From assembly GCA_963749075.1 (NCBI GenBank), contig CAVVLJ010000017.1, positions 352,001 to 416,000 on the forward strand: a stretch of 64,000 bases of DNA, written 5' to 3'. Position 1 is the first letter of the stretch; the number at the start of each line of letters is the position of its first letter. Positions 16,958-39,654 of the stretch are shown one piece after another. Under the pieces are notes generated by a model. The model saw only the letters and a program-made list of their open reading frames with translations, was not told where the DNA came from and ran no database searches. Made by a program: the position numbers and the translations under genes. This DNA is from an uncultured Pseudomonadota bacterium (GTDB taxonomy: Bacteria; Pseudomonadota; Alphaproteobacteria; JACZXZ01).

Positions 16958-18022
16958 TTGGGCGACATGTCGAATGAACCATCGGCGAACGCGGACCAGG
17001 GTCTCGTACCGGTCATCGACATCGCCCCGTACCTCGGCGGGAACGAGGCGCAGAAGCGCGAGGTTGCCGCCCGGATCGACGCCGCCTGCCGCGAAGCGGG
17101 GTTCTACATCATCGTCGGCCACGGCGTGGATGCGGCACTGATCGAGCGCATGGCAGCGATATCGCGCGAGTTCTTCGCCCTTCCGCTGGCGGACAAGATG
17201 CGGCTGCACCGCGACGGGAGCGGGGAGAAGGGCTCCGTCGGCTACTCGACGATCGGCGACAACAACCTCTCCTATACGCGCGGCGAGAATCTCCCCTTCG
17301 ATCTCAACGAGACCATTCAAATCGCACCCCTCGACGTCGGCAACGACGCATATTACCGGGAAGGCGCTACGCTCGGGATGTTCCCGCCCAACCAGTGGCC
17401 GGAACGTCTGCCGGCGTTCAAGGAGATCTTCAGCGACTATTACCGACGCATGATCGCACTTGCCGGCGACCTCATGCGGCTCTCCGCCCTGGCGCTCGAG
17501 CTGCCCGAGGACTACTTCGCCGACAAGATCGACCGCAGCGTGAGCAAGCTTGCCGCTCGTCTCTATCCGGAGCAGGCCGAGGAACCGCTGCCGGGCCAGC
17601 TCCGGGCCGCGGCCCACACCGATTACGGCACGCTGACGATCCTGAAGCCCGGCAACGCGCCGGGCGGGCTGCAAATCGCCGACGGAGAAGGCCGTTGGCA
17701 CGATGTCCCGATGGTGCCCGGCTCCTACGTGATCAATCTCGGCGATGTCATGGCGCGCTGGACGAACGATCGCTGGCGCTCGACGCTACATCGTGTCACG
17801 AACCCGCCGCTGGAACTGCGCCGAAGCTCCCGCCGGCTCTCGATCGTGTTTTTCGGCCATCCGAATTACGATGTCGCCGTGTCCTGCCTGCCGTCTTGTC
17901 GGCAGCCGGGGAACCCGCCGCGCTACGAGCCGATTACCGTCGCGGATTACTATCTCTTGAAACAGAATCAGGGGCGCATCCTCCGGACTAGGGCTTCCTC
18001 TCCTCACGAGGCCGCGCCATGA
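16958..18022 (+). CDS. 2OG-Fe(II) oxygenase, isopenicillin N synthase family
   Basis: VPVIDI, ACREAGFYIIVGHGV, HTDYG, INLGDVMARWTNDRWRSTLHRV, RLSIVFF. Confidence 0.92.
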   Translation: MGDMSNEPSANADQGLVPVIDIAPYLGGNEAQKREVAARIDAACREAGFYIIVGHGVDAALIERMAAISREFFALPLADKMRLHRDGSGEKGSVGYSTIGDNNLSYTRGENLPFDLNETIQIAPLDVGNDAYYREGATLGMFPPNQWPERLPAFKEIFSDYYRRMIALAGDLMRLSALALELPEDYFADKIDRSVSKLAARLYPEQAEEPLPGQLRAAAHTDYGTLTILKPGNAPGGLQIADGEGRWHDVPMVPGSYVINLGDVMARWTNDRWRSTLHRVTNPPLELRRSSRRLSIVFFGHPNYDVAVSCLPSCRQPGNPPRYEPITVADYYLLKQNQGRILRTRASSPHEAAP

Positions 18023-18593
18023 GCGCGCGTAGCTTGCCGGCGATGCGCTCGCCCGGCGTGCCAGCATCGAACCCCGCGGCGAAGGCGCCTTGCGGGTCCA
18101 TGACGTAGATATAGGCGCTGTGGTCCATGAGGTAGTCGTCGGCGCCGGCTCCGGTCCTGCGGCGGACGTAGTAGACCCCGTATTCCTTGGCGACGGCGGC
18201 GAGCTGTTGCGGAGCGCCGATGAGGCCGACGATCCGCGGGTCGAAGGCGCGGACGTAGCTCGCCATCACCTTGGGCGTGTCGCGCTGGGGATCGACCGTG
18301 ATGAAGAGCACCTGCAGCTTTGCCGCTTCGGGCCCGAGCTTCGCGAGCGCCCGGGCGATCTCGCCGAGCGTGGTCGGGCAGGTGTCGGGACAGAAGGTAT
18401 AGCCGAAGTAAACGAGCAGCCATTTGCCGCGGTACGTCCGATCGGTGACGGTCGCGCCGCCGGCGGTCGTCAGCGTGAAGGGTCCACCGATGGTCACCGC
18501 CGCCGCGGCCGCCCGCGGCAGAGGCGGGCTCATCGCCATGAGAGCCAGCGCTGCCAGAACGGCCGGCAGCATGGAGAGGAGGCGCCGCCGCAC
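17988..18593 (-). CDS. SCO/SenC copper chaperone
   Basis: IGGPFTL, YFGYTFCPDTCP, TVDPQRDT, YLMDHS. Confidence 0.93.
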   Translation of the reverse strand: MRRRLLSMLPAVLAALALMAMSPPLPRAAAAAVTIGGPFTLTTAGGATVTDRTYRGKWLLVYFGYTFCPDTCPTTLGEIARALAKLGPEAAKLQVLFITVDPQRDTPKVMASYVRAFDPRIVGLIGAPQQLAAVAKEYGVYYVRRRTGAGADDYLMDHSAYIYVMDPQGAFAAGFDAGTPGERIAGKLRALMARPREERKP

Positions 18594-18774
18594 GAGAGCT
18601 CACTCCCCGGGTGCCGCGGCGGCCGGCGGGCGGCGGCCGCGAGCGCCGGCGCGGCAGCGCCGGCGGCACGGCGAAGCGAGCCCGCCCGGCACCAGTGCCA
18701 GTCGTCCGCTCTCGGCGATCATGGCTTCCGACCTTCCGGCGGCGGATTGGCCGCCGCCGCGGCGCCGTCCCCGC

Positions 18775-19992
18775 TCACGCGGCCTTGGGGATCATCAAGC
18801 GGCCCCAGACATCGGCGAGGGCTGCCACCAAGCTGTCGATATCGGCGTCGGAATGCAAGGGCGTCGGTGTGAGCCGCAGACGCTCGCTGCCGCGCGGCAC
18901 GGTGGGGAAATTGATCGGCTGCACGTAGATGCGGTGGCGCGCGAGGAGCTCGTCCGAGGCCTGCTTGCACAGCCGCGCGTCGCCCACGAGCACGGGCACG
19001 ACATGGCTCGGCGACGGCATCATCGGCAATCGCGCGTGGCGCAGCCGCGCTTTCAGCAAGGCGACGCGCTCCTGGTGGCGCTCGCGCACCGCCGGGGCGC
19101 CCTTGAGGAAGCGCAGGCTGGCAAGGGCGCCCGCAGCGATCGCCGGCGGCAGCGCCGTGGTAAAGATGAAGCCGGGTGCGAAGCTGCGCAGGAAGTCGAC
19201 GAGTGCCGCCGAGCCGGCGACATAGCCGCCCACCAGACCGAAGGCCTTGGCCAGCGTGCCCTGGATCAGGCTCAGCCGGTGCATCACGCCGTCCCGCTCG
19301 GCGACGCCCCCGCCGCGCGGGCCGTAGAGGCCGACGGCATGGACCTCGTCGAGATAGGTGAAGGCGCCGTAGCGCTCCGCCACGTCGCAAAGCTCGGCGA
19401 GGGGTGCGATGTCGCCGTCCATGGAATAGACCGACTCGAAGGCGACGAGCTTGGGCCGCTCCGGATCGGCGAGGGCCAGCCGGCGCGCGAGGTCCGCCGG
19501 ATCGTTGTGCGCGAAGATGTGCCGCTCGGCGCCGCTGTGCCGGATGCCTTCGATCATGGAGGCGTGATTGAGCGCGTCGGAATAGATGATGGCGCGCGGC
19601 ATCTGGCGGCCGAGGGTCGCCAGCGCCGCCTCGTTGGCGACGTAGCCCGAGGTGAAGAGGAGTGCCGCCGCCTTGCCGTGGAGATCGGCGAGCTCGCGCT
19701 CGAGGGCGACATGGTAGCGGGTGGTGCCGGAGATGTTGCGCGTGCCGCCGGCGCCGGCGCCGCTGAGGTCGATGGCCTCGCGCATGGCGGCCAGCACCTC
19801 CGGGTGCTGCCCCATGCCGAGATAGTCGTTCGAGCACCACACCGTCACCTCGGCGCCGAGGCGGTGCTCGAAGGCGTTGGGGAAGGCGCCCGCCCGCCGC
19901 TCGAGCTCGGCGAAGACGCGGTAGCGCCCCTCCCCTCTCAGCTCGGCGAGGCGCTCGGTGAAGAATGCCTCATAGTTCGGCTCTCGCCGCAT
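18775..19992 (-). CDS. hemA: 5-aminolevulinate synthase
   Basis: [60 protein letters not shown]. Confidence 0.97.
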
Positions 19993-20086
19993 CGGCCTCG
20001 ACCCAACTTCCGCGATTCCCCGAAGCGAAGCGCCGTCTCGGCGGCGGAGCGGCGGCGCGCCCCGCCGCCGCCCCGCGTAGCGCCGC

Positions 20087-20536
20087 CTAATATTGCCCGG
20101 TATCGAGCACCGAGCCCGAATTCGACCAGTAGATGTAGGTCTCGAGCGCCTTCATCGCCTCCGAGTCGGGAGTGATCTTCTCGCCCTGGTTTGGCTTCTC
20201 GATGCACCAGTTGATCATGTCCCGCAGCGTCGCGAAGGCGGCCATCTGGGATTGAAACTTCGGGAACGAGCCGGGATGGGTGTCGGAGGCCATGGGATGG
20301 CACATCGCGCAAGCCATCCCCGTCTTGCTGAGCGTCACCCCCATCGCCTTGGCGGTGGCGCCGTCGCCATGGAACAGAAGGTCGCCCTTCCTGACCTCGT
20401 CCATGAGGACATCGTTGTACGCCTTGAGCTGATCCGGCGTGACGGGCGTCTTATGGGCATCCGCAGAGCTGATCAACCCTACCGTCAGAACGGTTCCGAC
20501 GAGGAGGGCGCCGCGGACGAACTTTCGGCTTGTCAT
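20087..20536 (-). CDS. Small monoheme cytochrome c, SoxA/TsdA-domain-like
   Basis: Sec signal; CAMCH; FPKF....TLRDMINWC...[11 protein letters not shown] parallels the Cys-ligated heme domain of SoxA/TsdA. Confidence 0.8.
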
Positions 20537-20549
20537 GGCCAGTCCTCCC

Positions 20550-21689
20550 TCAGTCCTTGTATTGCCACATTTCGTCGGCGATGCGCGGATGCAGGATCTC
20601 GCGGTGGCTCAGCGAGGAGTCGGACATCGATTGAGCGTAGACCACCTTGCGGCCCCACATGACGTAGTCGTTCTCGACCTTGTCGGCGGCGCTGACGGTG
20701 AGCTTGTCCCAGCCGACGCCGTCGTAGATGTCGCCGGGATCGGCACGGATCATCGGCACGGTGAGCTTCGGCACGCCCTCCGGCGCATAGGGCCACGGCC
20801 ACGCGGTCGACAGCATGCCGATGCAGCGCATGTGCCCGATCTCGTTGTAGAGCACCTGGTGGGTATGGCCGTGGATGTTGGTGATGTTGGTGTAGGGCGC
20901 CAGCACCTCGTTGACCGGTCGCCAGTCGCGCACCCAGAAGTTCCAGCGCGGGTAGTACTCGTAGAGGGGGTTGTGCGTGAAGACGATCACCGGCTTGGCC
21001 TTGTCCCAGCCGGAGAGCGATTTCTGCAGGAAGTCGATCCCGTCGCTGCCGACCGCGGCCCAGGGACCGGCGACGTTGCCGTCGAGGGTCGCCATGTGAT
21101 CCATGCGCTCTTCCGGGCTCATCTTCCTGGCCGACCAGTAGTCCGGCGCGCGGCTGACGGTGTCGAGGCCGATGAAGCGTACGCCCTTGTGGTCGAAGGT
21201 CCAGCTCGGCTTGCCGTAGAGGTCGGTCCAGTGCTTGCCCATGTCGTAGTACCAGTCGTGCTCGCCCGGGATGAAGTGCTTCGGGGCCTTCACCTCCTTG
21301 AGGATATTGCTGCCGAGATCGAGCTCATCGGCGCGGCCGAGCTGGGCGATGTCGCCGCCGAAGACGAGGAAATCCGGCGCCGGTTTCATCTCCTGCACGT
21401 CCTTGACAGCGCGCACCGTCTTCTCGACGAAGCGCTCGTTGACCGCCTTGACATAGAGGTGCGTGTCGGAAATCCAGGCGAAGCTGAAAGGCTCCGTCGC
21501 GGCGTGGGCGACGCTGATGGTGTTGACGAGGGGGAACCAGCCCACGCTCGCCGCCCCGGCGGCCACGCCGGTGGCGATCGATTTGTGCAGGAACGTGCGG
21601 CGGCTGAGATGGAGCGACGGGTCGGGCCGCGCGCCGAGTTTGTTCAAGGTGCGGTGCATCTCACGTCGTTCGCGGTCAAGCTCGGACAT
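20550..21689 (-). CDS. Tat-exported calcineurin-like metallophosphoesterase
   Basis: SRRTFL Tat motif; SDTH, GGD, PGEHD, THNP, HGHTH metal motifs; GGAGG RBS. Confidence 0.9.
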   Translation of the reverse strand: MSELDRERREMHRTLNKLGARPDPSLHLSRRTFLHKSIATGVAAGAASVGWFPLVNTISVAHAATEPFSFAWISDTHLYVKAVNERFVEKTVRAVKDVQEMKPAPDFLVFGGDIAQLGRADELDLGSNILKEVKAPKHFIPGEHDWYYDMGKHWTDLYGKPSWTFDHKGVRFIGLDTVSRAPDYWSARKMSPEERMDHMATLDGNVAGPWAAVGSDGIDFLQKSLSGWDKAKPVIVFTHNPLYEYYPRWNFWVRDWRPVNEVLAPYTNITNIHGHTHQVLYNEIGHMRCIGMLSTAWPWPYAPEGVPKLTVPMIRADPGDIYDGVGWDKLTVSAADKVENDYVMWGRKVVYAQSMSDSSLSHREILHPRIADEMWQYKD

Positions 21690-21768
21690 GGCGTGCCTCC
21701 CTTTCTTGGTCGTCACAAAACATTGCGCACTCGCCCAAGGCGGCGAACGGCCGAGCGGGCCGTCTCGC

Positions 21769-22491
21769 CTACTTGGGCGCCTTCAGCTCGATGGCGAGTT
21801 CCACAGGCTTGCCCGCGGCAACCGTGACCGGCTGCTCCATCTCGCCCGTATAGGGCTGCCAGGTCACGAGGGTGTAGTTGCCCGGCGGCACGTCCGCGAT
21901 CGTGAACTTGCCGTCGGCGCCGGTGATGGCGTAGTAGGGATTGTCCACGACATAGATCCAGCCCAGCATCCAGCCGTGGGCGTCGCAATCCACGCGCACC
22001 TCGCCGGGCCGCGTCAGGTCCGTCTCGATGCGCTGGCCCTTGTTCGGCAAGGCCATGTTGAAGGCGGTGCGCTTGCCGTAGTAGCCGTGGGTGTTGTGCA
22101 GCACCGGATCGTCGTTGACGACCACGAGCGGTCCCGCGGGGATGACCTGGACATCGGGCACGAAGCGGCATTTCACGTTGTCGAGCTCGGGCTTCTTGCC
22201 GGGCGCCGGCCAAGCCTTGCCCTTGGCCACCTCCTTGAGGAAGACGACCGCGTTCGCGACGGCGTGGTCGGCGTCCACGTCGATCAGCGGATCCTCGCGG
22301 ATGCCGCCGCAGACCTCGACATCCTTGGTCGGAATGATCTTCCGCGTCGGTACGGTGCCGTTGTAGGTGATCTTGCCCGAGATGGTGCCGCCGCCGGTAA
22401 CCGTGCCCGCCTCATAGGCTTGCGCGGGGACGCTCAAGAATGCCGCGAGGGCGAGCGCAAGAAAAACGGCAAACGGATTGATAGTCTTCAT
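21769..22491 (-). CDS. Exported cupredoxin-like protein with carboxypeptidase-regulatory-like domains
   Basis: Sec signal; C.F.P.V, NDDPVLHNTH, CDAHGWM (type-1 Cu-like H..CxxHxxM), DGKFTIADVPPGNY. Confidence 0.75.
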   Translation of the reverse strand: MKTINPFAVFLALALAAFLSVPAQAYEAGTVTGGGTISGKITYNGTVPTRKIIPTKDVEVCGGIREDPLIDVDADHAVANAVVFLKEVAKGKAWPAPGKKPELDNVKCRFVPDVQVIPAGPLVVVNDDPVLHNTHGYYGKRTAFNMALPNKGQRIETDLTRPGEVRVDCDAHGWMLGWIYVVDNPYYAITGADGKFTIADVPPGNYTLVTWQPYTGEMEQPVTVAAGKPVELAIELKAPK

Positions 22492-22597
22492 CGCTACGGC
22501 TCGCCCTCCCAAAGCTTTCCGGCCATTATTGCGTCCGGCGTGCCGCCGGCGGCCTTTTCACGAGGCGTCGAGAGCAAGGGTGGCATGGAAGCCGCCC

Positions 22598-22630
22598 GGA
22601 AATCTTTGGCGAATTCCTGAAATCTTCTGG
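22598..22630 (-). promoter_or_regulatory. Shared upstream motif, copy 1
   Basis: GGAAATCTTTGGCGAATTCCTGAAATCTTCTGG; 30/32 identical to the reverse complement of copy 2. Confidence 0.8.
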
Positions 22631-22800
22631 TTTGACCTGATGCGGCCGCGCGCGGCTCTCGCCATTGCGCGGCGCGCGTGATGCGGCGGCGGGTCATGGT
22701 CGGCATCAGCCCATTGCGCAGGCGCCTACGGACGAGAGGTGCCCGCGGCCAGCGCCGCGTGCTCCGGCGCGGGCTGCGCCGGCCCCCACTCAGCTCATTT

Positions 22801-22832
22801 CAGAAAATTCCAGGAATTCGCCAAAGATTTCC
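22801..22832 (+). promoter_or_regulatory. Shared upstream motif, copy 2
   Basis: CAGAAAATTCCAGGAATTCGCCAAAGATTTCC, about 104 bp upstream of the ccoN-like ATG. Confidence 0.8.
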
Positions 22833-22935
22833 GCGTGGGTTTCGTGCAACGCTGGCTCTCGCGCGCACCGAATAGAGCAAGAATAGCGCGCAGCAACCGG
22901 CTGGGCTGGGAAGCCGAGGGGAGGAGGGGCGCACC

Positions 22936-24390
22936 ATGGCCGAAGCAGTGCATGGGGCGGAACCGCTGCACGGCAAGTTCGCCGGCATCGATCTCGATGA
23001 GCTGGTCGATTGGCGGCTCGTAAGAACTTGGCTCTATTTCGGCATGTTTTGGCTGATGGTGACGCCCTCGGTCGGCGTGACGCTCTCGGGCATCTTCGAC
23101 TATCCCGATTATCTCGGCCATGCGCTGGGCCTGACCTTCGGGCGGCTGCGGCCGGTGCACGTCAACGGCGTCATCTTCGGCGCCTTTTCCAGCCTGTTCA
23201 TCGGGGAGTGCTATTACCTGGTGCCGCGCCTGTGCGGCGTGCGCGTCGCCTGGGGCGAATGGGGCATTCCGCTCGCCTGGGTGTGGAACCTGGCGCTCCT
23301 GGCCGGCCTTACCTCGCTGCCCTTGGGCGATAACCACGGGCTTGAGGCGGGCGAGCTCCCCCTCCTCGCCGAGATCCCGATCTTCATCGTAACCGCGGCC
23401 GCGACCGCGCAGTTCATCGTCACCATTTCGCGGCGCCTCGAGCCGGCGCTTTACGTGGCGCTTTGGTACCTGATCGGCGCTTTCATATGGACCACGTTGA
23501 ACCTCATCCTGGGCGCCTTCATCCTGCCCTACACCATCTCGGGCGTCAACAGCGCCGCCTTCCACGGGCTCTACATCCACTACATCGTCGGCCTATGGAT
23601 CACGCCGGCGGGCTACGTCATCATCTATTATTTCCTCCCGCTCAGCGTGCGCAATCCGCTCTATGCCCACAAGCTCTCCATGGTCGGTTTCTGGTCGCTC
23701 GCGCTGTTCTATCCCTTCGTCGGCATCCACCACTATCTCTACAGCCCGATCGCCGATTGGGCCGAGACGATCGCCATCGTCTGCTCGATGCTGCTGATCA
23801 TCCCGGTGTGGACGGTGCTGGTGAACTTCTTCGGTACCGTGAAGGGCCGCTGGGCGCACTTCGGCAAGAACCTCCCGGCCAAGTTCCTGATCATGGGCTC
23901 CATCATGTATCTTGCCGGCTGCTTCCAGGGCTCGACCGAGGCGTTGCGCTCGATCCAGCAGCCAACCCATTTCACCGACTTCGTCATCTCCCATTCGCAC
24001 CTCACCGTGTTCGGCACCTTCGTGGTGTGGTCGATCGGCGGCCTCGTCTATCTCTGGCCGCGCGTCTGGGGCCGCGAGCTGTGGTCCTTCACGCTCGGTA
24101 ACTATTCCTTCTGGCTCATCACCGTCGGCATCTCCACCATGGGCCTGGTGCTGACGGCGGGAGGCCTGCAGCAGGGCTACGAGTGGATGAGCGGCACCAA
24201 CTGGCTCGACACGGTGGTGCACATGCGGCCCTTCTGGTTCGCGCGCACCCTCGCCGGGATCAGCATGGACATCGGCATGTCGCTGCTCGTCATCAACCTG
24301 ATGATGACGGCGATCACCAGTCCCGCCGCGGAGAGGCAGCCGCACGTGCGCGGCAGCGCCCCGCTGCCAGCCGGGGGGGCCGCGGAATGA
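22936..24390 (+). CDS. ccoN: cbb3-type (C-family) heme-copper oxidase subunit I, divergent
   Basis: FGRLRPVH.NG, LYVALW, helix VI IHYIVG, helix VII YPFVGIHH, helix X HFTDFVISHSH. Confidence 0.88.
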   Translation: MAEAVHGAEPLHGKFAGIDLDELVDWRLVRTWLYFGMFWLMVTPSVGVTLSGIFDYPDYLGHALGLTFGRLRPVHVNGVIFGAFSSLFIGECYYLVPRLCGVRVAWGEWGIPLAWVWNLALLAGLTSLPLGDNHGLEAGELPLLAEIPIFIVTAAATAQFIVTISRRLEPALYVALWYLIGAFIWTTLNLILGAFILPYTISGVNSAAFHGLYIHYIVGLWITPAGYVIIYYFLPLSVRNPLYAHKLSMVGFWSLALFYPFVGIHHYLYSPIADWAETIAIVCSMLLIIPVWTVLVNFFGTVKGRWAHFGKNLPAKFLIMGSIMYLAGCFQGSTEALRSIQQPTHFTDFVISHSHLTVFGTFVVWSIGGLVYLWPRVWGRELWSFTLGNYSFWLITVGISTMGLVLTAGGLQQGYEWMSGTNWLDTVVHMRPFWFARTLAGISMDIGMSLLVINLMMTAITSPAAERQPHVRGSAPLPAGGAAE

Positions 24391-26090
24391 ACGCTCGCAT
24401 CGTAGCGCTGCTCGCCGGCGTCTTCTTCTTCTTCCTCGCCGTCGTCACGCAAGGGGTGCTGCCCTTCCTCGAGCCGTCGGCACGCACCAATCTGGTGACG
24501 GCGGTGGTCCGCACCGACCTCGGTCAGCTCAAATGGATGGTGACGGCGGCCACCGATTACACCCCGCTCCAGCAGCGCGGCCGCGACGTGTATCTCAGGG
24601 AGGGCTGCTGGTACTGTCACTCCCAATACGTGCGCCCGGTGACCGGCGAGACGCGGCGCTGGGGGCCGGTGAGCGAGGCCGGCGAATACGCCTACGACGT
24701 GCCGCACCTCTTCGGCACGCGGCGCATCGGGCCCGACCTCACGCGGGTCGGCCTCAAATACGGCGACGAGTGGCATTTCGCCCACTTCTGGAATCCGCGC
24801 ATGCTGTCGCCGGATTCGATCATGGCGTCCTATCGCGATCTCTTCGACCTGCCGAGCCGGCCGGTCAAGATCGTCGATGACGGCCAGGGCGGCCGCACCC
24901 TCGAGCAGACCGCGGTCACCAAGAAGCTCTTCGACTTCGCGAGCAAGGACCAGATCAAGCTCACGCCGAATGCCGAGGGCCTGCTCTTCGTCCCCAAGGC
25001 GGCGGCGGGCAAGTTCCCGCTGATCTGGACGCCCAACAAGGAATATACCGGCGCCACGGTCACCCTTGCCGTGGAGAGCGACGATCTCGAGGGCCTCATC
25101 GCCTACGTCCAGAAGCTCGGCATGAACCGCGGCAAGTGGCGTGATCGCTTCGAGCCGCAGGAGCTCGAGTCCTCGGGGGCGGCCCTGCCGGCCTCGGAGG
25201 AATGGATCGCCTACGGCAAGGAGGTCTACGAGCGGCATTGCGTCGGCTGCCACGGCGACAAGGGCGACGGCAACGGGACCGCCGCGACCTTCATGTACAA
25301 TCAGCGGCCGCGCAACTTCACGCTCGGCGTCTTCAAGTTCCGCCTCACCCAGAAGCCCGTCCCGACCGACGGCGACCTGCTGCGGACGATCACGCGCGGC
25401 GTGCGCGGCACGGCGATGCCGCCCTGGTATAGCCTGCCGCTCAACGACCGTCTCGCCGTCATTCAGTACATCAAGTACGTTCTCGCGGTGGACCGTTCCG
25501 ACCCGAAGAAGCCTTATGCCTATTTCGTCGAGGAGCCGCCGGGTCAGCCGCTCTATATCCCCAACCCCCCGCCGCCCTCGCAGCAAATGGTCGCGCACGG
25601 CCACGACGTCTGGCAGAACGCCAAGTGCTGGGAGTGCCATGGCACGGCCGGCATGGGCGATGGCGAGAAGGCCGCCGGCTTGAAGGACGATTTCGGCTTC
25701 CCGATCCGGCCCGCCAATCTCACCACGGGCCAGTTCAAGTCGGGGCCGAGGGTGGAGGACATCTTCAGGACGATCAGCACCGGCTTGAGCGGCTCGCCGA
25801 TGCCATCGTTCCGGGATTCGGAGCCGGAGGCGGACCGCTGGGCGCTCGCCTACTACATCCTGTCGCTCTCCGCCTACAAGGATCCGCTCACCGCCAAGCC
25901 GCTCGAGCTGCCCGCGGCGGTGCGCACGGCGCTCGACGATCCCAAGCTCGAGGCGCCGACCCCCGAGCGGGCCTATGTGCCGCCCGGCGTCTCGATGGAG
26001 CGCGTGACGGAGGCGGGCGTCTCCATCGCCCCTGGCGAGACGGTGGAAGTGCGCAAGGAGGCGAGCGCGGGCACTAGCGGGAAGGATTGA
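24387..26090 (+). CDS. ccoO: CcoO-like subunit fused to two further cytochrome c domains (triheme)
   Basis: GRDVYLREGCWYCHSQYVRP, FGTRRIGPDL; further CVGCH and CWECH with GTAMP and GSPMP Met ligands; ATGA overlap with ccoN. Confidence 0.85.
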   Translation: MNARIVALLAGVFFFFLAVVTQGVLPFLEPSARTNLVTAVVRTDLGQLKWMVTAATDYTPLQQRGRDVYLREGCWYCHSQYVRPVTGETRRWGPVSEAGEYAYDVPHLFGTRRIGPDLTRVGLKYGDEWHFAHFWNPRMLSPDSIMASYRDLFDLPSRPVKIVDDGQGGRTLEQTAVTKKLFDFASKDQIKLTPNAEGLLFVPKAAAGKFPLIWTPNKEYTGATVTLAVESDDLEGLIAYVQKLGMNRGKWRDRFEPQELESSGAALPASEEWIAYGKEVYERHCVGCHGDKGDGNGTAATFMYNQRPRNFTLGVFKFRLTQKPVPTDGDLLRTITRGVRGTAMPPWYSLPLNDRLAVIQYIKYVLAVDRSDPKKPYAYFVEEPPGQPLYIPNPPPPSQQMVAHGHDVWQNAKCWECHGTAGMGDGEKAAGLKDDFGFPIRPANLTTGQFKSGPRVEDIFRTISTGLSGSPMPSFRDSEPEADRWALAYYILSLSAYKDPLTAKPLELPAAVRTALDDPKLEAPTPERAYVPPGVSMERVTEAGVSIAPGETVEVRKEASAGTSGKD

Positions 26091-31723: not shown

Positions 31724-32971
31724 GTGGCCGTGCCTTCTTCCGTCATCGCCGCGCGCCCCTCCTGGCGCCGGCTGGCTTTTGTGGTTGGGCCCGGATTGGT
31801 GGCGATGCTGGCCGATACCGACGCCGGCAGCGTGATCACCGTGGCGCAGAGCGGGGCACAGTGGCAATACCGGCTTTTGCTGCTGCAATTCCTGCTCATT
31901 CCGGCGATGTTCATGGCGCAGGAGCTCGCCGGGCGCATCGGGATGTGCACCGGCAAGGGATGCGCCGAACTCATCCTCGCGCGGTTCGGTCGTGCCTGGG
32001 CCGCGCTCGCCATCGCGGCGCTTGCGATCAGTTGCTTTGGCGCGCTGGTCACCCAGATGAGCGGGCTTGCCGGCGCGGCCCGGGTCTTCGGCGTGCCGGT
32101 GTGGCAAGGCGTCACTCTCGCCGTGGCGATGATCTTCGTCATGGTCGTCACAGGGTCCTACCGGTCGGTCGAGCGCATCGCGATCTTTCTCGGCCTGTTC
32201 GAGCTGGCATTTGTGGTGGTCGCCTGGAGGGCCGCGCCGAACATCGGGGAGATGGCCACCCAGCTTGTCCAGATGCCGCTGGGCGACGCCAACTATCTTT
32301 ATCTGCTCGCGGCCAATCTCGGTACCGGCGTGATCCCCTGGACGATTCTCTACCAGCAATCGGCGAGCGTCGATAAGGGATTGACGCGAGACGACATCCG
32401 CGGAGCCCGAATCGAGACATTGGCGGGAGTGATTTTGTGCCAGGTGGTGACCTCCGCAATGTTGGTGGCGGCGGGAGCGGCGTTGTACGAAAGAAGCGCC
32501 GACACTGGCCTCATGGACATCGGGGACATCGCCAACGCCTTTACTCCGGTGCTCGGCGACACGGTGGGCCGCGTGGTGTTCGCTCTCGGCCTCTGCGGCG
32601 GGGCCCTGGTGGCAACCGTGGTCGTGTGCCTCACCTCGGCATGGGCGATCGGCGAGGTGCTGGGGCTGCGGCATTCGCTGGAGCATCGCCCCGCCGAGGC
32701 GCCCTGGTTCTATGGCGCCTTCGGGGCGATCCTCTTGGCCGGCGGCATGATCGTGGACTCGGGCATCAATCTGGTGGCTCTGGCCATCGCTGCCGGCGTC
32801 GTCAATGCGCTGCTGCTGCCCGTGGTCCTCGGCTTCCAGTACCGGCTGGCGCGCACGGTGCTGGCGGCGCCCGACCGGCTCAAGGGCTGGTACGCCGTCG
32901 TCGTCGGCGTGATTTTCTTCCTCACCAGCGCTGTAGGAGTTTTCGCGGGGCTCCTCGGGGCGTTCGGATGA
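31724..32971 (+). CDS. NRAMP-family divalent metal transporter
   Basis: GPGLVAMLADTDAGS, QELAGRIG..TGKG, GTGVIPW...YQQS. Confidence 0.88.
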   Translation: MAVPSSVIAARPSWRRLAFVVGPGLVAMLADTDAGSVITVAQSGAQWQYRLLLLQFLLIPAMFMAQELAGRIGMCTGKGCAELILARFGRAWAALAIAALAISCFGALVTQMSGLAGAARVFGVPVWQGVTLAVAMIFVMVVTGSYRSVERIAIFLGLFELAFVVVAWRAAPNIGEMATQLVQMPLGDANYLYLLAANLGTGVIPWTILYQQSASVDKGLTRDDIRGARIETLAGVILCQVVTSAMLVAAGAALYERSADTGLMDIGDIANAFTPVLGDTVGRVVFALGLCGGALVATVVVCLTSAWAIGEVLGLRHSLEHRPAEAPWFYGAFGAILLAGGMIVDSGINLVALAIAAGVVNALLLPVVLGFQYRLARTVLAAPDRLKGWYAVVVGVIFFLTSAVGVFAGLLGAFG

Positions 32972-33900
32972 CGGGCGAACTTTCCTGGCTGGGCCGCTCG
33001 CTGCAGATTCTCGTCGTCGACCTGCTGCTCGCCGGCGACAATGCGATCGCCATCGCACTCGTCTGCCGGTCGCTGCCGCAGGAGTGGTTGACCAGGGCCA
33101 GCCTGCTCGGCGCGGCGAGCGCCTTCGTGCCGCGCTTGTTGCTCACCGGCGTGGCGGCGAGGCTGATGGAGGTTCCCGGCTTGCGGCTGGTCGGCGCGGT
33201 GCTGCTGGCGATCATTGCCGTCAATCTCGTCGCCGCGCATGGCGAACCCGGCGAAGCGGGCACGACGGAGCGCAGCGCCGCCCCCGCCGCGAGTTTGTGG
33301 GCCGCGGGCATGGCGATCGCCGTCGTCAATCTGGCCATGAGCCTCGACAATACCGTGGCCCTCGCCGCGGTCTCCCAGGGCAGCATGCTCTACTTGGCGC
33401 TGGGTCTGGCCTTGAGCATCCCGATCCTGATGTTCGGCAACGTGGCACTGGTGATGCTGTTCCGCCGCCATCCGGGGCTGGTGGCGGCGGGCGGCGCCAT
33501 GCTCGGCTGGTGCGCCGGCGACATGGCGGCTTCCGACCCGCTCGTCCTGCCGTGGATGACGGCACAGGCACCGGCGCTGAGCGTCGTCGTTCCCATGCTG
33601 GTGGCGGTCTATGTGCTGGTGCAGGCCCGCTTCACCGTCGCGACACCCTACAGCGCCGAGCCGATCGCAACGCGGATCGTAAGCCAGCAGCCGCTGCCGC
33701 CGCGTCTCAATGCCGCCGCGGTTCCGGCGGCGGCGCCGGCTCGGCGGCCGCCGCGAGCGGTGCGGCGCGCTGCCGCGGGTGCCGCGCAGCAGCCAGCGGC
33801 TCGCCGAGCCAGCCGGAAAGAGCGCCTCGTCGTCTTCGGCCTTCTCTCCCTCGTCGTCGTCGCGGGCATCGTCCTGGGATACGTCTGGAGCATTGCCTGA
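32968..33900 (+). CDS. TerC/YjbE-family membrane protein
   Basis: VDLLLAGDNAIAIALVCRSLP, MSLDNTVALAA, GLALSIPILMFG. Confidence 0.88.
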   Translation: MTGELSWLGRSLQILVVDLLLAGDNAIAIALVCRSLPQEWLTRASLLGAASAFVPRLLLTGVAARLMEVPGLRLVGAVLLAIIAVNLVAAHGEPGEAGTTERSAAPAASLWAAGMAIAVVNLAMSLDNTVALAAVSQGSMLYLALGLALSIPILMFGNVALVMLFRRHPGLVAAGGAMLGWCAGDMAASDPLVLPWMTAQAPALSVVVPMLVAVYVLVQARFTVATPYSAEPIATRIVSQQPLPPRLNAAAVPAAAPARRPPRAVRRAAAGAAQQPAARRASRKERLVVFGLLSLVVVAGIVLGYVWSIA

Positions 33901-33926
33901 GCGCGCTCCGCGTATCGGCACCGCGC

Positions 33927-35195
33927 TCAGCCGAACACGTCGTGGGTGAAGGCGGCGTACCAATCCTCCGCCTGGCGCACCGCCCGGGCGCGCACCGCGG
34001 CGCTCTCCTCCACCTTGCTGATGGCGATATCGGCGATCTTGATCGTCCCTTCGCCGGCGCGAAAGACGATGGCGTCGCTCACCGCATCGTCGGGAGCGAG
34101 ATAGGTGAAGCAGGTATTGAACAGCTTCGGCGGCGGGGGCTGGCCGCCGGCAAGCGCCGCGGCGATGGCGAAGGCGCAGACCTTGGCTTGGCTGTTGGCG
34201 GCGAAGGCGGATTTCGGCATCCGGCCGGGGGCAATCGCGTCGCCCACGAGATGGATGCCGGGATGCAACGTCGAAGCGAAGCTCTGCGGGTCGACCGGGC
34301 ACCAGCCGGACTGGTCGGCAAGCCCGGCCTCGAGCGCGAGCCGTCCGGCCGTCTGCGGCGGGATGACGTTGGCGACCGAGGCCTTGTAGGTCTCGCCCGC
34401 CGTCCTGATCGTGCGGCTCTTCGCCTCGACCGCCTCGATGCCGCCGGTGAACTCGGCGGGCAGCCATTCGATCATCCCCGGATAGTGGCGGCTCCAGCCA
34501 TCCTCGAACAGATCCTGCTCGAAGAAGCTGTCCTTGGCGTCGAGAATGAGAATCTTCGCCCGCGGCTTCCGGCGCTGGAAATAGGAGGCGACGAGGGAGG
34601 CGCGCTCGTAAGGCCCCGGCGGGCAGCGGAAGGGCTCGGGTGGTGCCGCGATGATGAAGACGCCGCCATCCTCCATCGCCTCGAGCTGGCTACGCAGCAG
34701 CCGGGTCTGCGGCCCGGCCATCCAGGCATGGGGCATGGTCTCGCTCGCGGCCTTGTCATAGCCGGCGATCGCACCCGGCCTGAAGGAGATCCCCGGGGCG
34801 ACGACGAGACGGTCGTAGGCCAGCCGCTTGCCGCTCGAGAGGCGCACGCTGCGCTTCTCGGGGTCGATCGCCGTGGCCTGGTCATGGACGAGCTTGATGC
34901 CGTGGAGCCGCGCCAGCGCCTCATAGCCGTGGGTGAGCGAGGCGAAGGAGCGCAGCCCGGCGAGATAGAGATTGCTGAAGAAGCACGTGACGTAGTGCTG
35001 CTTCGGCTCGACCAGGGTCACCGCGACCGCCGGGGCGGCGAGGGCGAGATAGCGGGCGACAGTGGCGCCGCCGATGCCGCCGCCGATCACCACCACCCGG
35101 GCCTTGGCGCCGGCGCGCGCCGGCCGCGGCGGGAGGGCGGCGAGGCAGGCAGCGCCGGCGAGGCAGCCGAGCTCGCGCCGCGTCCAGCATCTCAT
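33927..35195 (-). CDS. fccB: Flavocytochrome c sulfide dehydrogenase flavoprotein (FccB/SoxF-like)
   Basis: Tat TRRE; VVVIGGGIGG; FRCPPGPYERAS and NTCFTY (redox cysteines); MPKSAFAANSQAK. Confidence 0.9.
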   Translation of the reverse strand: MRCWTRRELGCLAGAACLAALPPRPARAGAKARVVVIGGGIGGATVARYLALAAPAVAVTLVEPKQHYVTCFFSNLYLAGLRSFASLTHGYEALARLHGIKLVHDQATAIDPEKRSVRLSSGKRLAYDRLVVAPGISFRPGAIAGYDKAASETMPHAWMAGPQTRLLRSQLEAMEDGGVFIIAAPPEPFRCPPGPYERASLVASYFQRRKPRAKILILDAKDSFFEQDLFEDGWSRHYPGMIEWLPAEFTGGIEAVEAKSRTIRTAGETYKASVANVIPPQTAGRLALEAGLADQSGWCPVDPQSFASTLHPGIHLVGDAIAPGRMPKSAFAANSQAKVCAFAIAAALAGGQPPPPKLFNTCFTYLAPDDAVSDAIVFRAGEGTIKIADIAISKVEESAAVRARAVRQAEDWYAAFTHDVFG

Positions 35196-35554
35196 CGCCG
35201 CCGCCCGGCCTTGCCCTCGCTCGCAAGGACATGCGCCACCGTTGCGATCTCGTCCTCGCTGAGCGCCCCGGCGACGGCATGCATGATCTGGCTTTGGCGC
35301 GCCCCCGAGCGGTAGGCGAGGATGGCGCCGGCGAGACTCTTCTCATCCCGGCCGGCGAGCGCGGGAATGGCCTTGCCGCCGCCGCGGGGCAGATGGCAGG
35401 CGGCGCAAGTGGCGGCCAGATAGGCGCCAAGCCCGTCCTCCGCGGCGGGCGCCCGGCACGGGGACGAGAGCAAGGCAGCCGCGGCGAGCGCCAAAGCCAG
35501 GCCGGACCGAGGAATGCGCCGCGGCACCCGGCCCGGATGGGACGCCGCCCTCAT
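35192..35554 (-). CDS. Monoheme cytochrome c subunit of sulfide dehydrogenase
   Basis: LAATCAACH, IPALAG, AYRSG.R..QIM. Confidence 0.85.
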   Translation of the reverse strand: MRAASHPGRVPRRIPRSGLALALAAAALLSSPCRAPAAEDGLGAYLAATCAACHLPRGGGKAIPALAGRDEKSLAGAILAYRSGARQSQIMHAVAGALSEDEIATVAHVLASEGKAGRRR

Positions 35555-35904
35555 GCGCGGACGGTGAGCTGTTGCTCGAGCTTGTAGACGGCGCCGCCGT
35601 CCTCCTCCCAGATGAACTCGAGCCGGCCGCTGTCGCCCGCGCGCACGGTGAACTCGAGGTAGGGGTTGGCGGCCATGGCCTCGTGGAGGTCGACCGTGAA
35701 GACCGCCTCGCCGTTGTAGCGGCAGGTGAATTTGTTGATGATCTTGCGCGGAATGAGCTTGCCGTCGCTGTCGTGCCGCAAGCCGGTCTCCATCGGGTGG
35801 GTGATGAGGGTCCTGACCTGAAAGACCTCGCCCTTTGCCACTGCGCCCGGCGCCTGCACGCGCGGCGAGGGTACCGCCTCCCTGCGGCCCTCAGGCGCAG
35901 CCAT
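35551..35904 (-). CDS. soxZ: Sulfur carrier protein SoxZ
   Basis: VRTLITHPMETGLR.D.DGKLIPRKII, NPYLEF. Confidence 0.92.
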   Translation of the reverse strand: MAAPEGRREAVPSPRVQAPGAVAKGEVFQVRTLITHPMETGLRHDSDGKLIPRKIINKFTCRYNGEAVFTVDLHEAMAANPYLEFTVRAGDSGRLEFIWEEDGGAVYKLEQQLTVRA

Positions 35905-36355
35905 TGGTATCCACCTTGACCCAGGTCTTGGTCATCAGGAGCCCGTCGTCGCTCATCTCCGCCACTGCGAGGACGAACTGCGGCTCGGCGAGGCGAATGC
36001 GGGTGGAGACGTGCGCCCGCCCGCTCTGCGGCGTGAAGTGGAAGTCGGCGACCTCGATGATCGGATTGCGTGGCGCTATCACGCGAACGCGCCTCACGTG
36101 GTCGGCCTCGGTCATCGGGCTGTCGACCTCGAGGGTGAGCGGCACGGTGTAACCGCTCGGGAAAGATGACGGCATCAGCAGACGAACGCGGCTCGACGCC
36201 GTGGGCACCCTGCCCGTCAGGCGCTGCAACAGCTCGCTCGCCTCGTCATCCGCGCGCGCGCGCAACGCCAGGAGAAGCGCGACGCCCGTCAGCCCCGCAC
36301 CACCCACGCCCGTGGCCGCCAACAAGGCGCGCCGCGTCAGACCGGCTCTCCGCAT
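35891..36355 (-). CDS. soxY: SoxY-like sulfur carrier with variant C-terminal arm
   Basis: Tat TRRALL; VPLTLEVDSPMTEADHV, RNP, VSTRIRLAE.Q.V.AVAEMSD; ends VKVDTNGCA. Confidence 0.85.
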   Translation of the reverse strand: MRRAGLTRRALLAATGVGGAGLTGVALLLALRARADDEASELLQRLTGRVPTASSRVRLLMPSSFPSGYTVPLTLEVDSPMTEADHVRRVRVIAPRNPIIEVADFHFTPQSGRAHVSTRIRLAEPQFVLAVAEMSDDGLLMTKTWVKVDTNGCA

Positions 36356-36452
36356 GAGCGCAACCCTTGTCGAACTCACAGCCCCGTCTCGGGAAGCGCC
36401 GAGGCGGCACAGCCCCATCCTACTCCCAGGCTCGCGCTGGCCACCGCATAAG

Positions 36453-36480
36453 TCTTTGGCGAGTCCCTGGAATTTTCTGG
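36453..36480 (-). promoter_or_regulatory. Shared upstream motif, copy 3
   Basis: TCTTTGGCGAGTCCCTGGAATTTTCTGG; 25/27 identical to the reverse complement of copy 2; about 95 bp upstream of soxY. Confidence 0.8.
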
Positions 36481-36773
36481 AATAAACTGGAATCGCCAGC
36501 CCGCCCCAGCGCGAGCGCCAGCACCGATCAGAAATCCGCCGGCGTGCAGGCCGCCCGTCCGCTCGGCAACTTGCTGATTTAGCGAGAAAAAGCTCCCCCG
36601 GCCCTGGCCCGCGTCGGCGCTGGGGCAGCGCTCGCGATCGCGCGACGACACGGCAAGCATCACGCGGCGCACGGGTGGCCGTTTGACGAATCCAGGCTGA
36701 ATCCCTCTCTTATGTGTGTTAAGCTGCACTTTGGAAACGCTCTAAGAACTCCACAATAAATAAGGAGCGGGGC

Positions 36774-39654
36774 ATGGGGGCCCTGGACAACCTCGAGCCC
36801 GCCGTAGAATTCGGTCGCTTCCACATGCTGCGGCGGCAGAGGGAGCTGCTGATCGACGGCAAAGCGGTCGAGCTGGGCACGCGCGCATTCGATATCCTGA
36901 CGGTGCTCATCGAGGCGCGCGGCGCGCTCGTCACCAAGGACGAGCTCTTGAAGCGGGTCTGGCCGAGCACGGTCATCGAGGAGAACACGCTCCAGAGCCA
37001 TGTCCATGCCCTGCGCCGGGCGCTTGGCAAGGACCGCAATCTCATCCTGACCGAATCCGGCCGCGGCTACCGCTTCGTCGGCGAGATCAATTCACCGCCC
37101 GCGGAAAAGGCCGCCTTGCCCGAGCCCAAGCTCGCGGTCCCGGCGGCAGCGCCTCGCGGCGCGCCGCAGACCAACTTGCCGCTGATCGTCTCCGAGCTGA
37201 TCGGCCGCGAGACCGAGCTCGCCGAGGTGCTCGATCTCGTCGGCGCGCACCGCCTGGTGACCTTGACGGGTGCCGGCGGCATCGGCAAGACGCGGCTCGC
37301 GCTCGAGGCCGCGCGGCGTCTCTTGCCCGGCCTTCCCGACGGGGTGTGGCTCGCCGAGCTGGCGCCGCTCTCCGACCCCAAGCTCGTGCCGGTCACCGTT
37401 GCCTCGGCACTCGGCCTCGAGCTCAAGGCGACGCAGGCGTTCGTCAAGCGGGCGGCGGCCGCCTTGAGCGGAAAGCAGCTGATCATCCTGCTCGACAATT
37501 GCGAGCACGTCGTCGAGGTGACGGCGCACATCGCCGAGACGCTGCTGCACGCCGTAGCAGGCGTGCGCGTCCTGGCGACCAGCCGGGAGCCGTTGGGCGC
37601 CGAGGGCGAGTTCAGCTACCGCGTGCCGCCGCTCGAGATACCGCCCCTTGGCGCCCGCGGGGCGGAGGACGCGCTGCGCTACGGCTCGGTCCAGCTCTTC
37701 GTCGCGCGCGCGCGGGCGACCGATCCGCATTTTGCGCTGGACGACCGCGCGGCGGCGACCGTGGGGGCCATCTGCCGCCGCCTCGACGGCATCCCGCTCG
37801 CCCTCGAGCTTGCCGCCGCACGCACCGCGGTGCTGGGGATCAACGGGCTGGCGACACTGCTCAACGACAGCTTCCGGCTGCTGGCAAGCGGACGCCGCAC
37901 GGGATTGCCCCGCCACAAGACCCTGCATGCCACCTTCGAATGGAGCTACGGCCTGCTCGCCGATGCCGAGCGCGTCGTGCTGCGGCGCCTCGCGGTCTTT
38001 GCCGGCGGCTTCACCCTGGAAGCGGCCGGTGCGGTCGTCACCGACGGCGACATCGCCGCGGCGGAGGCGGTCGAGCGGGTCACGGACCTCATCGCCAAGT
38101 CGCTGGTCACCGCGGACGTCGGTGGCAGCGTCGCGCGCTATCGCCTGCTCGAGACGACGCGCGGCTACGCCCTCGAGAAGCTCGCCGAGAGCGGCGAGCT
38201 CGAGGCGCTGGCGCGCCGGCATGCGGATTACTACCGGAGCTTCTTCGAGCGCGCGGAGGCCGACTGGGAGAAGATGCGGACGGCCGACTGGTTGATCGCC
38301 TGCGCCCCCGAGATCGACAACGTGCGCACCGCCCTCGCCTGGGCCTTCGGGCCGGGCGGCGACGTTCTCGATCGGGGTCGCGCTCACCGCGGCCTCGGCC
38401 ACGCTCTGGCTGCAGCTGTCGCTGCTGGACGAATGCCGCCAGCATGTCGAGCGGGCGCTCGTCAGCCTCGACGCCGCGTCGGGCCGCTGGACGCATCATG
38501 AGATGCTGCTCCAGGCGGCGCTCGCGCTCTCGCTGATGCACACCAAAGGGCCCGTAGACGAGACCGCGGCGGCCTGGACCAGAGCGCTCGAGCTGGCGGA
38601 GAGCCTCGATCACGCCGAATATCGCCTGCGCGCGACCTACGGATTATGGCTCTACCGCCTGACGATCGGCGAGTATCGCATCGCGCTCGCGCTGGTCCAT
38701 ATGTTCAGAGCGCGCGCCGACAACGACAGCGATCCCGGCGAGCTCCCGACCGGACTCGGCATGACCGGCATCTCGTTGCATTATCTCGGCGATCAGGTCA
38801 ACGCGCGGGCGCATATCGAGCGCATGCTCGCCCGCTCGGCACCGAGCTACCACCGCTCGCTGGCGGTCCGCTTCGGCCTCGATCAGCGCGTGGGCGCGCT
38901 GGTTCACTTGGCGCACATCCTGTGGCTCCAGGGCTTCCCCGATCAGGCCAGGCGCGTGGCCCTTGCCGGCGTCGATGAGGCGCGCATGGCCGACCACGTC
39001 ACCTCGATCTGCTTCGCGCTGGCCAACGGCGCCTGTCCCCTAGGGATCCTGACCGGCGATCTCCCGGCCGCGGAACGGCTGGTGGCGATGCTCATCGAGC
39101 TCGCGGAGAAGCATGCCCTGGGCGTTTGGCAGGCCTACGGCATCGCCTTGAGCGGTTGGGTCTCCGCCAAACGCGGCAGCACGGCCGAGGGCGTGCGGCT
39201 CCTCGGCGCCGGCCTGCGCGCCATCCGCAAGACGCGCTTCGCGCAACGCTTGACCATGTACCTCGGCGGCCTGGCGGAGGCGCTCGGCGAGGCCGGGCAG
39301 ATTGCCGAGGGGCTGGCCACGATCGATGAGTCGCTGCGGCGCTCGGAGCGCAATGACGAGCGCTGGAACTTCGTCGAGCTCCTGCGCATCAAGGGCGAGC
39401 TCCTGCGCCGCCGCGCCGCCGCCGCTCCGGGAGCTGCGGAGGAGATCCTCATGCAAGCCCTCTCGCGCGCGCGCCGCCAGGGCGCCCTCTCCTGGGAGCT
39501 GCGCACGGCCATGAGCCTTGCCCGGCTGCGGCGCGACGACGGCCGCATCGCAGAGGCGCGCGAGCTTCTGGCGCCCATCTACGGCCGCTTCACCGAGGGC
39601 TTCGAGACCGCCGATCTTAGCGCGGCACAAGCGCTCATGCGCGAGCTGCGATAG
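36774..39654 (+). CDS. Winged-helix (Trans_reg_C)-STAND/NB-ARC ATPase-TPR transcriptional regulator, frameshifted near 38365
   Basis: VTKDELL.RVWP...EENTL..HV.ALRR..GRGYRF; GAGGIGKT, LLDNCEH, LATSRE, ICRRLDGIPLALELAA; C-terminal ELR.A.SLARL..FTEGFETADL in the +1 frame. Confidence 0.88.

Follow-up and report, generated by a model that had tools for sequence, protein, structure and literature searches.

The stretch of DNA analysed here (the window) is 64,000 nucleotides long and comes from a soil bacterium of the Alphaproteobacteria. Positions 17988-36489 of the window span three neighbouring operons, which we call A, B and C, and we think it probable that they make up one co-regulated, horizontally mobile respiratory module, which would oxidise reduced sulfur in the periplasm and deliver the electrons to an oxidase of its own. 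An original prediction, made from the letters of the window, had described the same operons as a small Sox-like pathway in which a cytochrome and a metallophosphoesterase act as analogues of SoxA and SoxB on a variant SoxYZ carrier. Its observations on gene content are confirmed by our analysis and its interpretation is partly supported: the linkage of the operons is strong, and the roles given to the enzymes are plausible.

Results

Because the G+C content of the window is about 69%, raw lists of open reading frames (ORFs) were noisy. Genes were chosen by the G+C content of the third codon position (GC3) and then named with Pfam and NCBIfam profiles, and in this way all the genes that had been named in the three operons were found to be present. 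Operon A (minus strand, 22512 down to 17988) encodes in this order an exported copper protein, a metallophosphoesterase (MPE), a small SoxA/TsdA-type cytochrome (cytS), a 5-aminolevulinate synthase (ALA synthase) and the copper chaperone SCO1/SenC; the first three are referred to below as the trio. Operon B runs on the plus strand from 22936 and encodes a CcoN-type oxidase subunit, a CcoO fusion, a small protein like the N-terminus of FixP, a DsbD_2 protein and a P1B ATPase, followed by a lineage-specific tail. Operon C, on the minus strand from 36418 down to 33927, consists of the genes for SoxY, SoxZ, a monohaem cytochrome c and FccB.

The three operons are tied together by their promoters. 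A repeat search revealed an element of 40-45 nt in three copies, at 22600-22639, 22791-22835 (reverse complement) and 36445-36489, every one of them upstream of the first gene of one operon and in identical orientation relative to that gene. Between operons A and B, the divergent promoter region (22569-22861) contains a 72-nt inverted duplication with one copy of the element in each arm, and the third copy lies upstream of soxY. When the genome of 5,488,800 bases was scanned on both strands with up to 9 substitutions allowed in 35 nt, the only sites were the three at these promoters, which is well beyond chance. The shared upstream motif of the original prediction is thus real and has no further site in the genome; the same scan did not find it at the canonical sox cluster described below. 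Since the element occurs in the genome at the promoters of the three operons only, we take it as direct evidence for a single regulon. Inspected by eye, it consists of TTYC-type repeats about 10 nt apart, which would suit a winged-helix regulator such as the one encoded next to operon C. A consensus scan of 17800-37000 for promoters and terminators gave 0 promoter-like sites, and terminator-like sites at chance level, and so is of no use for setting the limits of the operons.

The second line of evidence is the conservation of the neighbourhood. With one genome per species, 185,579 species genomes were scanned and 318 loci with a related MPE were obtained; sequences of the best 80, with flanks of up to 10 kb, were retrieved, and their ORFs were searched with the proteins of the window. 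Forty-nine of these loci had at least 9 kb on both sides and form the full-flank subset. Across all 80 loci the copper protein was found in 79 and cytS in 77, and the trio was contiguous in 76; cytS was directly followed by CcoN in 50 loci and by SoxY/Z in 12. All 49 full-flank loci had the copper protein and cytS beside the MPE. Within 10 kb they also had the CcoO fusion (47), CcoN (44), SoxY/Z (43), FccB (42), the P1B ATPase (41), DsbD_2 (40), SCO1 (39) and ALA synthase (37). Canonical SoxA, X, B or C was found within 10 kb in 0 of the 80 loci. The original prediction had proposed such a survey of gene neighbourhoods, and the homologues of operon A indeed mostly occur with SoxY/Z (43/49) and FccB (42/49). 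The conserved synteny and a promoter element unique to the three operons together bear out the view that these form one unit.

The related loci also indicate which genes make up the core. In the usual alphaproteobacterial form, the genes for ALA synthase and SCO are divergent from a series encoding the copper protein, MPE, cytS, CcoN, the CcoO fusion, the FixP_N-like protein, DsbD_2 and the ATPase, and the cluster ends with a convergent soxY-soxZ-cytochrome-fccB operon. The small FixP_N-like protein is conserved 3' of CcoO, and the monohaem cytochrome c sits between SoxZ and FccB. The 12 loci with SoxY/Z right after cytS belong mostly to Binatia, Rokubacteria, Myxococcota, Eisenbacteria and 'Deltaproteobacteria', as metagenome-assembled genomes (MAGs), and in a locus of Rokubacteria the carrier is a SoxY-SoxZ fusion according to Pfam. 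In 11 of these 12 loci FccB is out of reach; the core therefore comprises the copper protein, MPE, cytS, the carrier and the oxidase, to which the alphaproteobacterial form has added FccB and its cytochrome. SoxY/Z is out of reach in six full-flank loci, and three of the six have a soxYZ-cytochrome-fccB cluster of the T[N/D]GC type, described next, elsewhere in the genome.

The carrier of the window has an arm of its own type. SoxY (35891-36418, minus strand; PF13501, 98.4 bits against a cut-off of 28.4) has a signal for twin-arginine translocation (Tat) and a C-terminal TNGCA arm. It scores below both NCBIfam cut-offs (81.6 against 125 for TIGR04488 and 115.5 against 172 for TIGR04487), and its arm differs from the GGCGG arm of true SoxY and from the AAC[I/L/V][E/D] arm of TIGR04487. 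Its alpha-type orthologues end in T[N/D]GC plus one variable residue, and the Cys of the arm is invariant in all 29 aligned sequences. A reciprocal scan with the window SoxY, which used exact peptide words from this one protein and is a sample, not a census, returned 66 loci. All 10 of these with a T[N/D]GC-x arm adjoin the MPE/oxidase cluster, and the remaining ones are GGCGG types beside SoxB or AAC-arm types without SoxB or MPE. SoxZ (35551-35904, minus strand) is over the equivalog cut-off of TIGR04490 (95.7 bits against 76).

The small cytochrome cytS (20087-20536, minus strand) has 149 aa and a single haem, and it contains a genuine SoxA/TsdA-type domain, as had been claimed. It scores above the gathering threshold of PF21342 (37.3 bits against 27), and C76, C79 and H80 of its CxxCH motif as well as a distal cysteine, C111, are invariant in 78 of 78 aligned sequences. 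In alignments, C111 falls on a Cys position in each of the two domains of Rhodovulum SoxA (1h31, E = 0.0036) and, in a weak match (E = 0.08), on chain residue 96 of Allochromatium TsdA (4wq7), all of which we take to be haem-ligand cysteines. The haem of cytS is therefore probably ligated by His/Cys, to judge from the alignment. Against the full SoxA family, TIGR04484, cytS reaches 28.1 bits (cut-off 110) with one domain covered, and so it falls outside that family. No SoxX match was found among the proteins of operons A and C; a score of 18.4 bits (cut-off 61) was seen only inside the CcoO fusion. In the whole genome the SoxA/TsdA domain occurs only in cytS and in the SoxA of contig C22.

The MPE (20550-21716, minus strand; PF00149, 42.2 bits against 21.5) is a Tat-exported dimetal enzyme by its sequence, and its true start is likely residue 10, giving a product of 379 aa. 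The family is conserved very strongly: the top 120 of 3585 database matches are 66-80% identical and about 377 residues long, and identity is still 64-71% across phyla in the survey of 80 loci. Four of the five dimetal motifs of class III phosphodiesterases (DxH, GD, GNH[D/E], H, GHxH) are intact, namely DxH, GD, H and GHxH; motif III reads GEHD instead of GNHD. Glu152 replaces the Asn of this motif, and Glu is present in all 17 core members of the family and in 13 of 17 divergent ones. Against the CpdA equivalog NF008359 the MPE reaches 33.7 bits (cut-off 225), and the only sequence matches of the MPE in the PDB are of the GpdQ/Rv0805 class. An AlphaFold2 model built from a 34-row alignment had a mean predicted local distance difference test score (pLDDT) of 77, with values above 85 over most of residues 73-356; it replaced a first model from 18 close homologues, which had a mean pLDDT of 55 and was discarded. 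The best fold matches of the model in Foldseek were GpdQ, Rv0805 and purple acid phosphatases. An uncontrolled co-fold of SoxY (residues 57-175), SoxZ and the MPE (residues 70-388) with two Mn scored 0.01 and counts neither way.

The copper protein (21769-22512, minus strand) is an exported protein of 247 aa, with a cupredoxin-like domain that contains a central C-x2-H-x2-M copper-site pattern and with a CarboxypepD_reg domain at the C-terminus (PF13620, 35.8 bits, residues 193-244). H139/H142, C176, H179 and M182 are retained in 77-80 of 80 aligned sequences. This ligand pattern fits the cupredoxin named in the original prediction and makes the protein a candidate type-1 (blue) copper protein; a Pfam cupredoxin match was not found at E<=0.01. 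At the level of sequence, the catalytic motifs of cytS, the MPE, the copper protein and CcoN are all intact.

The statement that no canonical sox genes are present holds for the window and is misleading for the organism. Contig C22 of the same genome carries soxC, X, Y (with the GGCGG end), Z, A and B, all above the NCBIfam cut-offs, and its SoxB (813 bits) is the only SoxB match in the genome. This sox cluster (L004, 6617-12908; L numbers denote our loci) has an ORF of 228 aa in the position of SoxD and an adjoining BigR-like regulator of the ArsR type. A separate canonical ccoN (744 bits) is found elsewhere in the genome, and ALA synthase has three copies above the TIGR01821 cut-off, including that of the window. 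Because of the canonical ccoN and the two further ALA synthases, the oxidase and the ALA synthase of the window can be regarded as extra, dedicated copies.

SoxB over the cut-off was found in 9 of 40 genomes with the module and not in the other 31, and some of these absences may reflect incomplete assemblies because some carriers are MAGs. The MPE (E<=1e-50) was not found in 40 relatives, 5 from the genus of the source organism, 5 from its family and 30 from its class. It occurs on 43 plasmid records, 35 of them from Sinorhizobium. The absence from relatives, the carriage on plasmids and the identity of 64-71% across phyla point to lateral spread of a self-contained island.

The oxidase of operon B appears to be an atypical cbb3 type with genes for copper and haem maturation around it, as had been described. 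Its catalytic subunit (22936-24390, plus strand) is a divergent CcoN-type member of the C-family haem-copper oxidases (COX1, 227.6 bits; TIGR00780, 220.5 bits against a cut-off of 583). In an alignment of 441 residues with CcoN of P. stutzeri (3mk7_A), the His ligands and the Tyr are conserved; we take these residues to be the histidines of haem b, haem b3 and CuB and the cross-link Tyr. Its match with nitric-oxide reductase is weak (39.5 bits). The next gene (24387-26090) encodes CcoO fused to a dihaem cytochrome c, with three CxxCH motifs (FixO, 147.8 bits, and two Cytochrome_CBB3 stretches; PRK14486, 179 bits). The FixP_N-like membrane protein of 67 aa (26243-26446) gives 22.6 bits for PF14715, under the cut-off of 24.9, and is followed by the DsbD_2 membrane protein (26802-27533; PF13386, 150 bits) and by a copper-type P1B ATPase with an approximate start (27533-29704; TIGR01525, 492.5 bits; TIGR01511, 421.8 bits), all on the plus strand. 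The last two genes of operon A encode the ALA synthase (18775-19992, minus strand; TIGR01821, 647 bits against 338) and SCO1/SenC (17988-18593, minus strand; PF02630, 165.3 bits).

The tail of operon B (29709-33900, plus strand) adds four genes that had not been listed before, encoding HflK (TIGR01933, 231.8 bits), HflC (TIGR01932, 210 bits), an Nramp-like transporter (PF01566, 206 bits) and TerC (110.2 bits). The survey of the 80 related loci covered HflK/C and Nramp of this tail and found homologues in 0. The Nramp-like protein scores well under the MntH cut-off, and its pairing with TerC hints, from sequence, at the handling of a metal, possibly manganese, for exported enzymes. In operon C, the partner of FccB is a monohaem cytochrome c (35192-35554, minus strand; PF00034, 25.5 bits), and the FccB-type flavoprotein (33927-35195, minus strand) has a Tat signal and both domains of its family above the cut-off (FCSD_central, 158.9 bits against 27; FCSD-flav_bind, 50.7 bits against 26). 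Divergent from soxY lies a large regulator (36774-39654, plus strand) with an OmpR-type winged helix (Trans_reg_C, 63.8 bits), an AAA_16 domain and a TPR part that matches TIGR03903. GC3 profile and translations show it split into two ORFs of 575 and 383 aa by a frame change near 38340, which may be an indel error of the assembly or a real defect that makes it a pseudogene. Homologues of this regulator were not found within 10 kb in the 80 related loci.

Some further observations were made on the related loci. A GroEL (Cpn60) paralogue is frequent beside the module (39 of 80 loci) and was not found in this window. The non-alphaproteobacterial form is headed by a pair of an extracytoplasmic function (ECF) sigma factor and an anti-sigma factor. 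In L072, from a MAG of Rokubacteria (10966-11832 and 16183-17625), the SoxY-SoxZ fusion gives a weak Desulfoferrodoxin match in Pfam (32.3 bits), and the cluster ends with a gene for a YeeE/YedE-type sulfur transporter, which was seen in 1 of 80 loci and is too rare to weigh. L015 (Lichenihabitans) and L055 and L056 (two Methylobacterium) have the trio and FccB together with a cytochrome c, the GroEL paralogue and a CcoO-dihaem protein; the CcoO-type gene of L055 abuts a gene for a photosynthetic reaction-centre cytochrome c. In the long-read MAG contigs of L019, L041 and L051, the CcoO fusion, the ATPase and others appear as strings of split ORFs, which suggests indel errors in the assemblies and not pseudogenes. 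The reciprocal scan also returned SoxY with the AAC[I/L/V][E/D] arm in recurrent cytochrome c-FccB-SoxX-SoxY-SoxZ-SoxA clusters without SoxB (L095, L099, L106, L115, L119, L140, L141, L144, L146 and others). Judged by gene content, these look like a second carrier-based sulfur module, apparently uncharacterised.

Discussion

We suggest the following scheme for the module. The single SoxA/TsdA domain of cytS, with its presumed His/Cys haem, would join the substrate by oxidation to the arm cysteine of SoxY, and the Tat-exported dimetal MPE would then free the oxidised end group as sulfate, like SoxB in the canonical pathway. FccB and its cytochrome, as accessories of the alphaproteobacterial form, might feed in sulfur derived from sulfide or keep the carrier working. 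The electrons would reach the CcoN-type oxidase through the putative blue-copper protein and then the trihaem CcoO fusion, and haem and copper for this oxidase may be supplied by the module's own ALA synthase, SCO1 and P-type ATPase. The hydrolase step is favoured because the MPE adjoins cytS, is exported and shares the superfamily of SoxB, and because SoxB is missing from most carriers. In the absence of a SoxCD-type enzyme, sulfite, or else the sulfone end of thiosulfate, seems the best chemical fit as the substrate.

Several points weigh against this scheme. A complete canonical Sox set is present in the genome, and the module is therefore unnecessary here for the oxidation of thiosulfate as such. 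By its predicted fold the MPE belongs to the branch of GpdQ, Rv0805 and the purple acid phosphatases and is not SoxB-like: SoxB was not among the Foldseek matches listed for the model, and TIGR04486 (SoxB) did not match the MPE at E<=0.01. A phosphoester substrate is therefore possible, and the reading of the MPE as an analogue of SoxB stays a hypothesis. The hydrolase step is weakened both by this phosphodiesterase-type fold and by three loci that have the trio without a dedicated carrier. These three, two from Methylobacterium and one from Lichenihabitans among the 49 full-flank loci, have the trio and FccB but neither a T[N/D]GC SoxY nor CcoN, and they carry only other SoxY types in the genome. 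The module has no SoxCD-like enzyme, so that complete oxidation of the sulfane sulfur is unexplained.

The same holds for some of the evidence on regulation and distribution. The adjoining regulator is frame-shifted in the assembly and absent from the 80 other loci. Among these loci, the promoter element is clear in one, the closest relative (L005, which has two copies between ccoN and the gene for the copper protein), and weak in a second (L029, one site with 8 mismatches); with recurrence in these two only, the element is lineage-specific. The sequencing runs that match the region are DNA contigs of soil and peat metagenomes, with no RNA among those listed. Finally, the survey covers the best 80 of 318 loci, and these are mostly from Alphaproteobacteria.

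Other explanations of the locus have to be considered. It is unlikely, in our judgement, that cytS works on a free substrate as a thiosulfate or sulfite dehydrogenase in a chain like that of TsdA, with the MPE cleaving a free product (a polythionate, or a sulfur or phosphorus ester) and SoxYZ only buffering or scavenging reactive sulfur. Such a chain would agree with the alignment of cytS with the catalytic haem domain of TsdA, chain residue 96 included, with the lack of SoxX and SoxCD in the operons of the window and in related loci, and with the persistence of the trio without dedicated SoxYZ in 3 of 49 full-flank loci. However, SoxY/Z is joined into an operon right after cytS in 12 loci from several phyla, and the Cys of the carrier arm is invariant in 29 of 29 SoxY.

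Another possibility is that the locus consists of two independent neighbours, a private oxidase with the trio as a non-sulfur front end and a separate SoxYZ-FccAB unit that handles or detoxifies sulfide. We consider this improbable. All three operons share the promoter element, for which the genome scan gave no other site; 43 of 49 full-flank loci have SoxY/Z within 10 kb, and in 12 of 80 loci it comes immediately after cytS; every T[N/D]GC arm in the reciprocal scan adjoined the cluster; and cytS is itself a domain of sulfur enzymes. These observations have to be set against the distance of 11 kb between the two units in the window, with HflKC, Nramp and TerC in between, against the 3 of 49 full-flank loci in which the trio has no dedicated SoxYZ, and against the phosphodiesterase type of the MPE fold.

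A third explanation concerns the MPE alone, which might be a redox or metal-handling protein instead of a hydrolase and might oxidise a metal ion or deliver it to the chain. Purple acid phosphatases, which have a comparable redox-active dimetal centre, are among its fold matches, the replacement of Asn by Glu at a metal ligand is a hallmark of the family (17/17 core and 13/17 divergent members), and operon B of the window contains Nramp-like and TerC genes. However, Nramp and HflKC were seen in none of the 80 other loci and the conserved partners of the MPE are proteins of the sulfur type, and we think that there is only a slight chance of such a role. That SoxYZ and cytS of the window are merely spare parts for the canonical SoxAXB of contig C22, with no pathway of their own, is very improbable in spite of the complete soxC-XYZAB set in this genome, since SoxB over the cut-off is lacking in 31 of 40 other genomes with the module (some being incomplete MAGs), canonical SoxA, X, B and C are within 10 kb in 0 of 80 loci, and the promoter element is absent from the C22 cluster.

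A wider claim may be put forward tentatively, and we hold it to be possible, though less likely than not: that reduced sulfur is oxidised on a carrier independently of SoxAX, SoxB and SoxCD, a Cys-ligated single-domain haem protein loading a SoxY with a new arm, a separately recruited dimetal enzyme of phosphodiesterase fold releasing the product, and a blue-copper protein linking this chemistry to a private cbb3-type oxidase that sees to its own maturation, with the entire set travelling between soil bacteria of several phyla, rhizobial megaplasmids included, as a plug-in respiratory island. If this is true, many soil heterotrophs, rhizobia with large plasmids included, would gain energy from reduced sulfur by a route that surveys of sox genes do not count. 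It would also mean that a second, independent metallophosphoesterase has adapted to a protein-bound sulfur substrate, and it would give an unstudied branch of the cbb3-type oxidases a defined physiological electron donor. Three promoters with one element that is unique in the genome offer a testable regulatory handle. Our literature search found no paper that joins these genes, and supplements might list more SoxY arm types; one paper on arsenite stress (PMC6620896) reportedly contains both 'SoxYZ' and 'metallophosphoesterase'.

With the canonical Sox system the module has in common a periplasmic SoxY/SoxZ carrier that is exported by Tat and bears a cysteine close to the C-terminus, a cytochrome domain of the SoxA family in which a Cys is conserved, a dimetal hydrolase from the metallophosphoesterase superfamily and a flavoprotein of the FccB/SoxF type. 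However, its carrier arm is T[N/D]GC-x instead of GGCGG, its cytochrome is a single domain of 149 aa without SoxX, and its hydrolase is GpdQ/Rv0805-like, whereas SoxB is 5'-nucleotidase-like. SoxCD is missing, and the module includes a putative blue-copper protein and a private oxidase. The AACIE-arm clusters (TIGR04487) provide the best NCBIfam match of the window SoxY (115.5 bits), and in them, too, a variant SoxYZ and a SoxA-type cytochrome occur together with FccB and a cytochrome c, and SoxB is lacking. They differ in having a full-length SoxA and usually SoxX, with no MPE, copper protein or oxidase in reach.

Among the single enzymes, TsdA of Allochromatium vinosum (4wq7) has a catalytic haem domain that aligns with cytS, as a weak match (E = 0.08), but TsdA is dihaem and uses no carrier protein. 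GpdQ and Rv0805 (3d03, 3ib7 and 2hy1) are the best fold matches of the MPE (Foldseek E = 1.8e-15 to 8e-14) and share its dimetal motifs. Their identity with it is only 16-18%, and the MPE differs in its export by Tat, in Glu for the Asn ligand, in a Trp-rich C-terminal extension of about 100 residues and in having redox proteins as fixed partners. Compared with the cbb3 oxidase CcoNOQP of Pseudomonas stutzeri (3mk7/5djq), the CcoN of the window can be aligned over 441 residues and retains the His ligands and the Tyr, and a CcoO domain is present, but CcoN scores 220 bits against a cut-off of 583 and CcoO is fused to a dihaem part.

A precedent for another hydrolase that frees sulfate from SoxY where SoxB is missing is SoxH, proposed as a stand-in for SoxB in Sulfurimonas sp. 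CVO, as cited in PMC11237559. SoxH is of another protein family, and the passage on it does not connect it with an MPE, a copper protein or an oxidase. According to the same paper, other divergent types of SoxY, in different gene neighbourhoods, are known. The present locus contributes the regulatory link of three operons, a separate-subunit carrier with its own type of arm, and the coexistence of the module with a full canonical Sox system.

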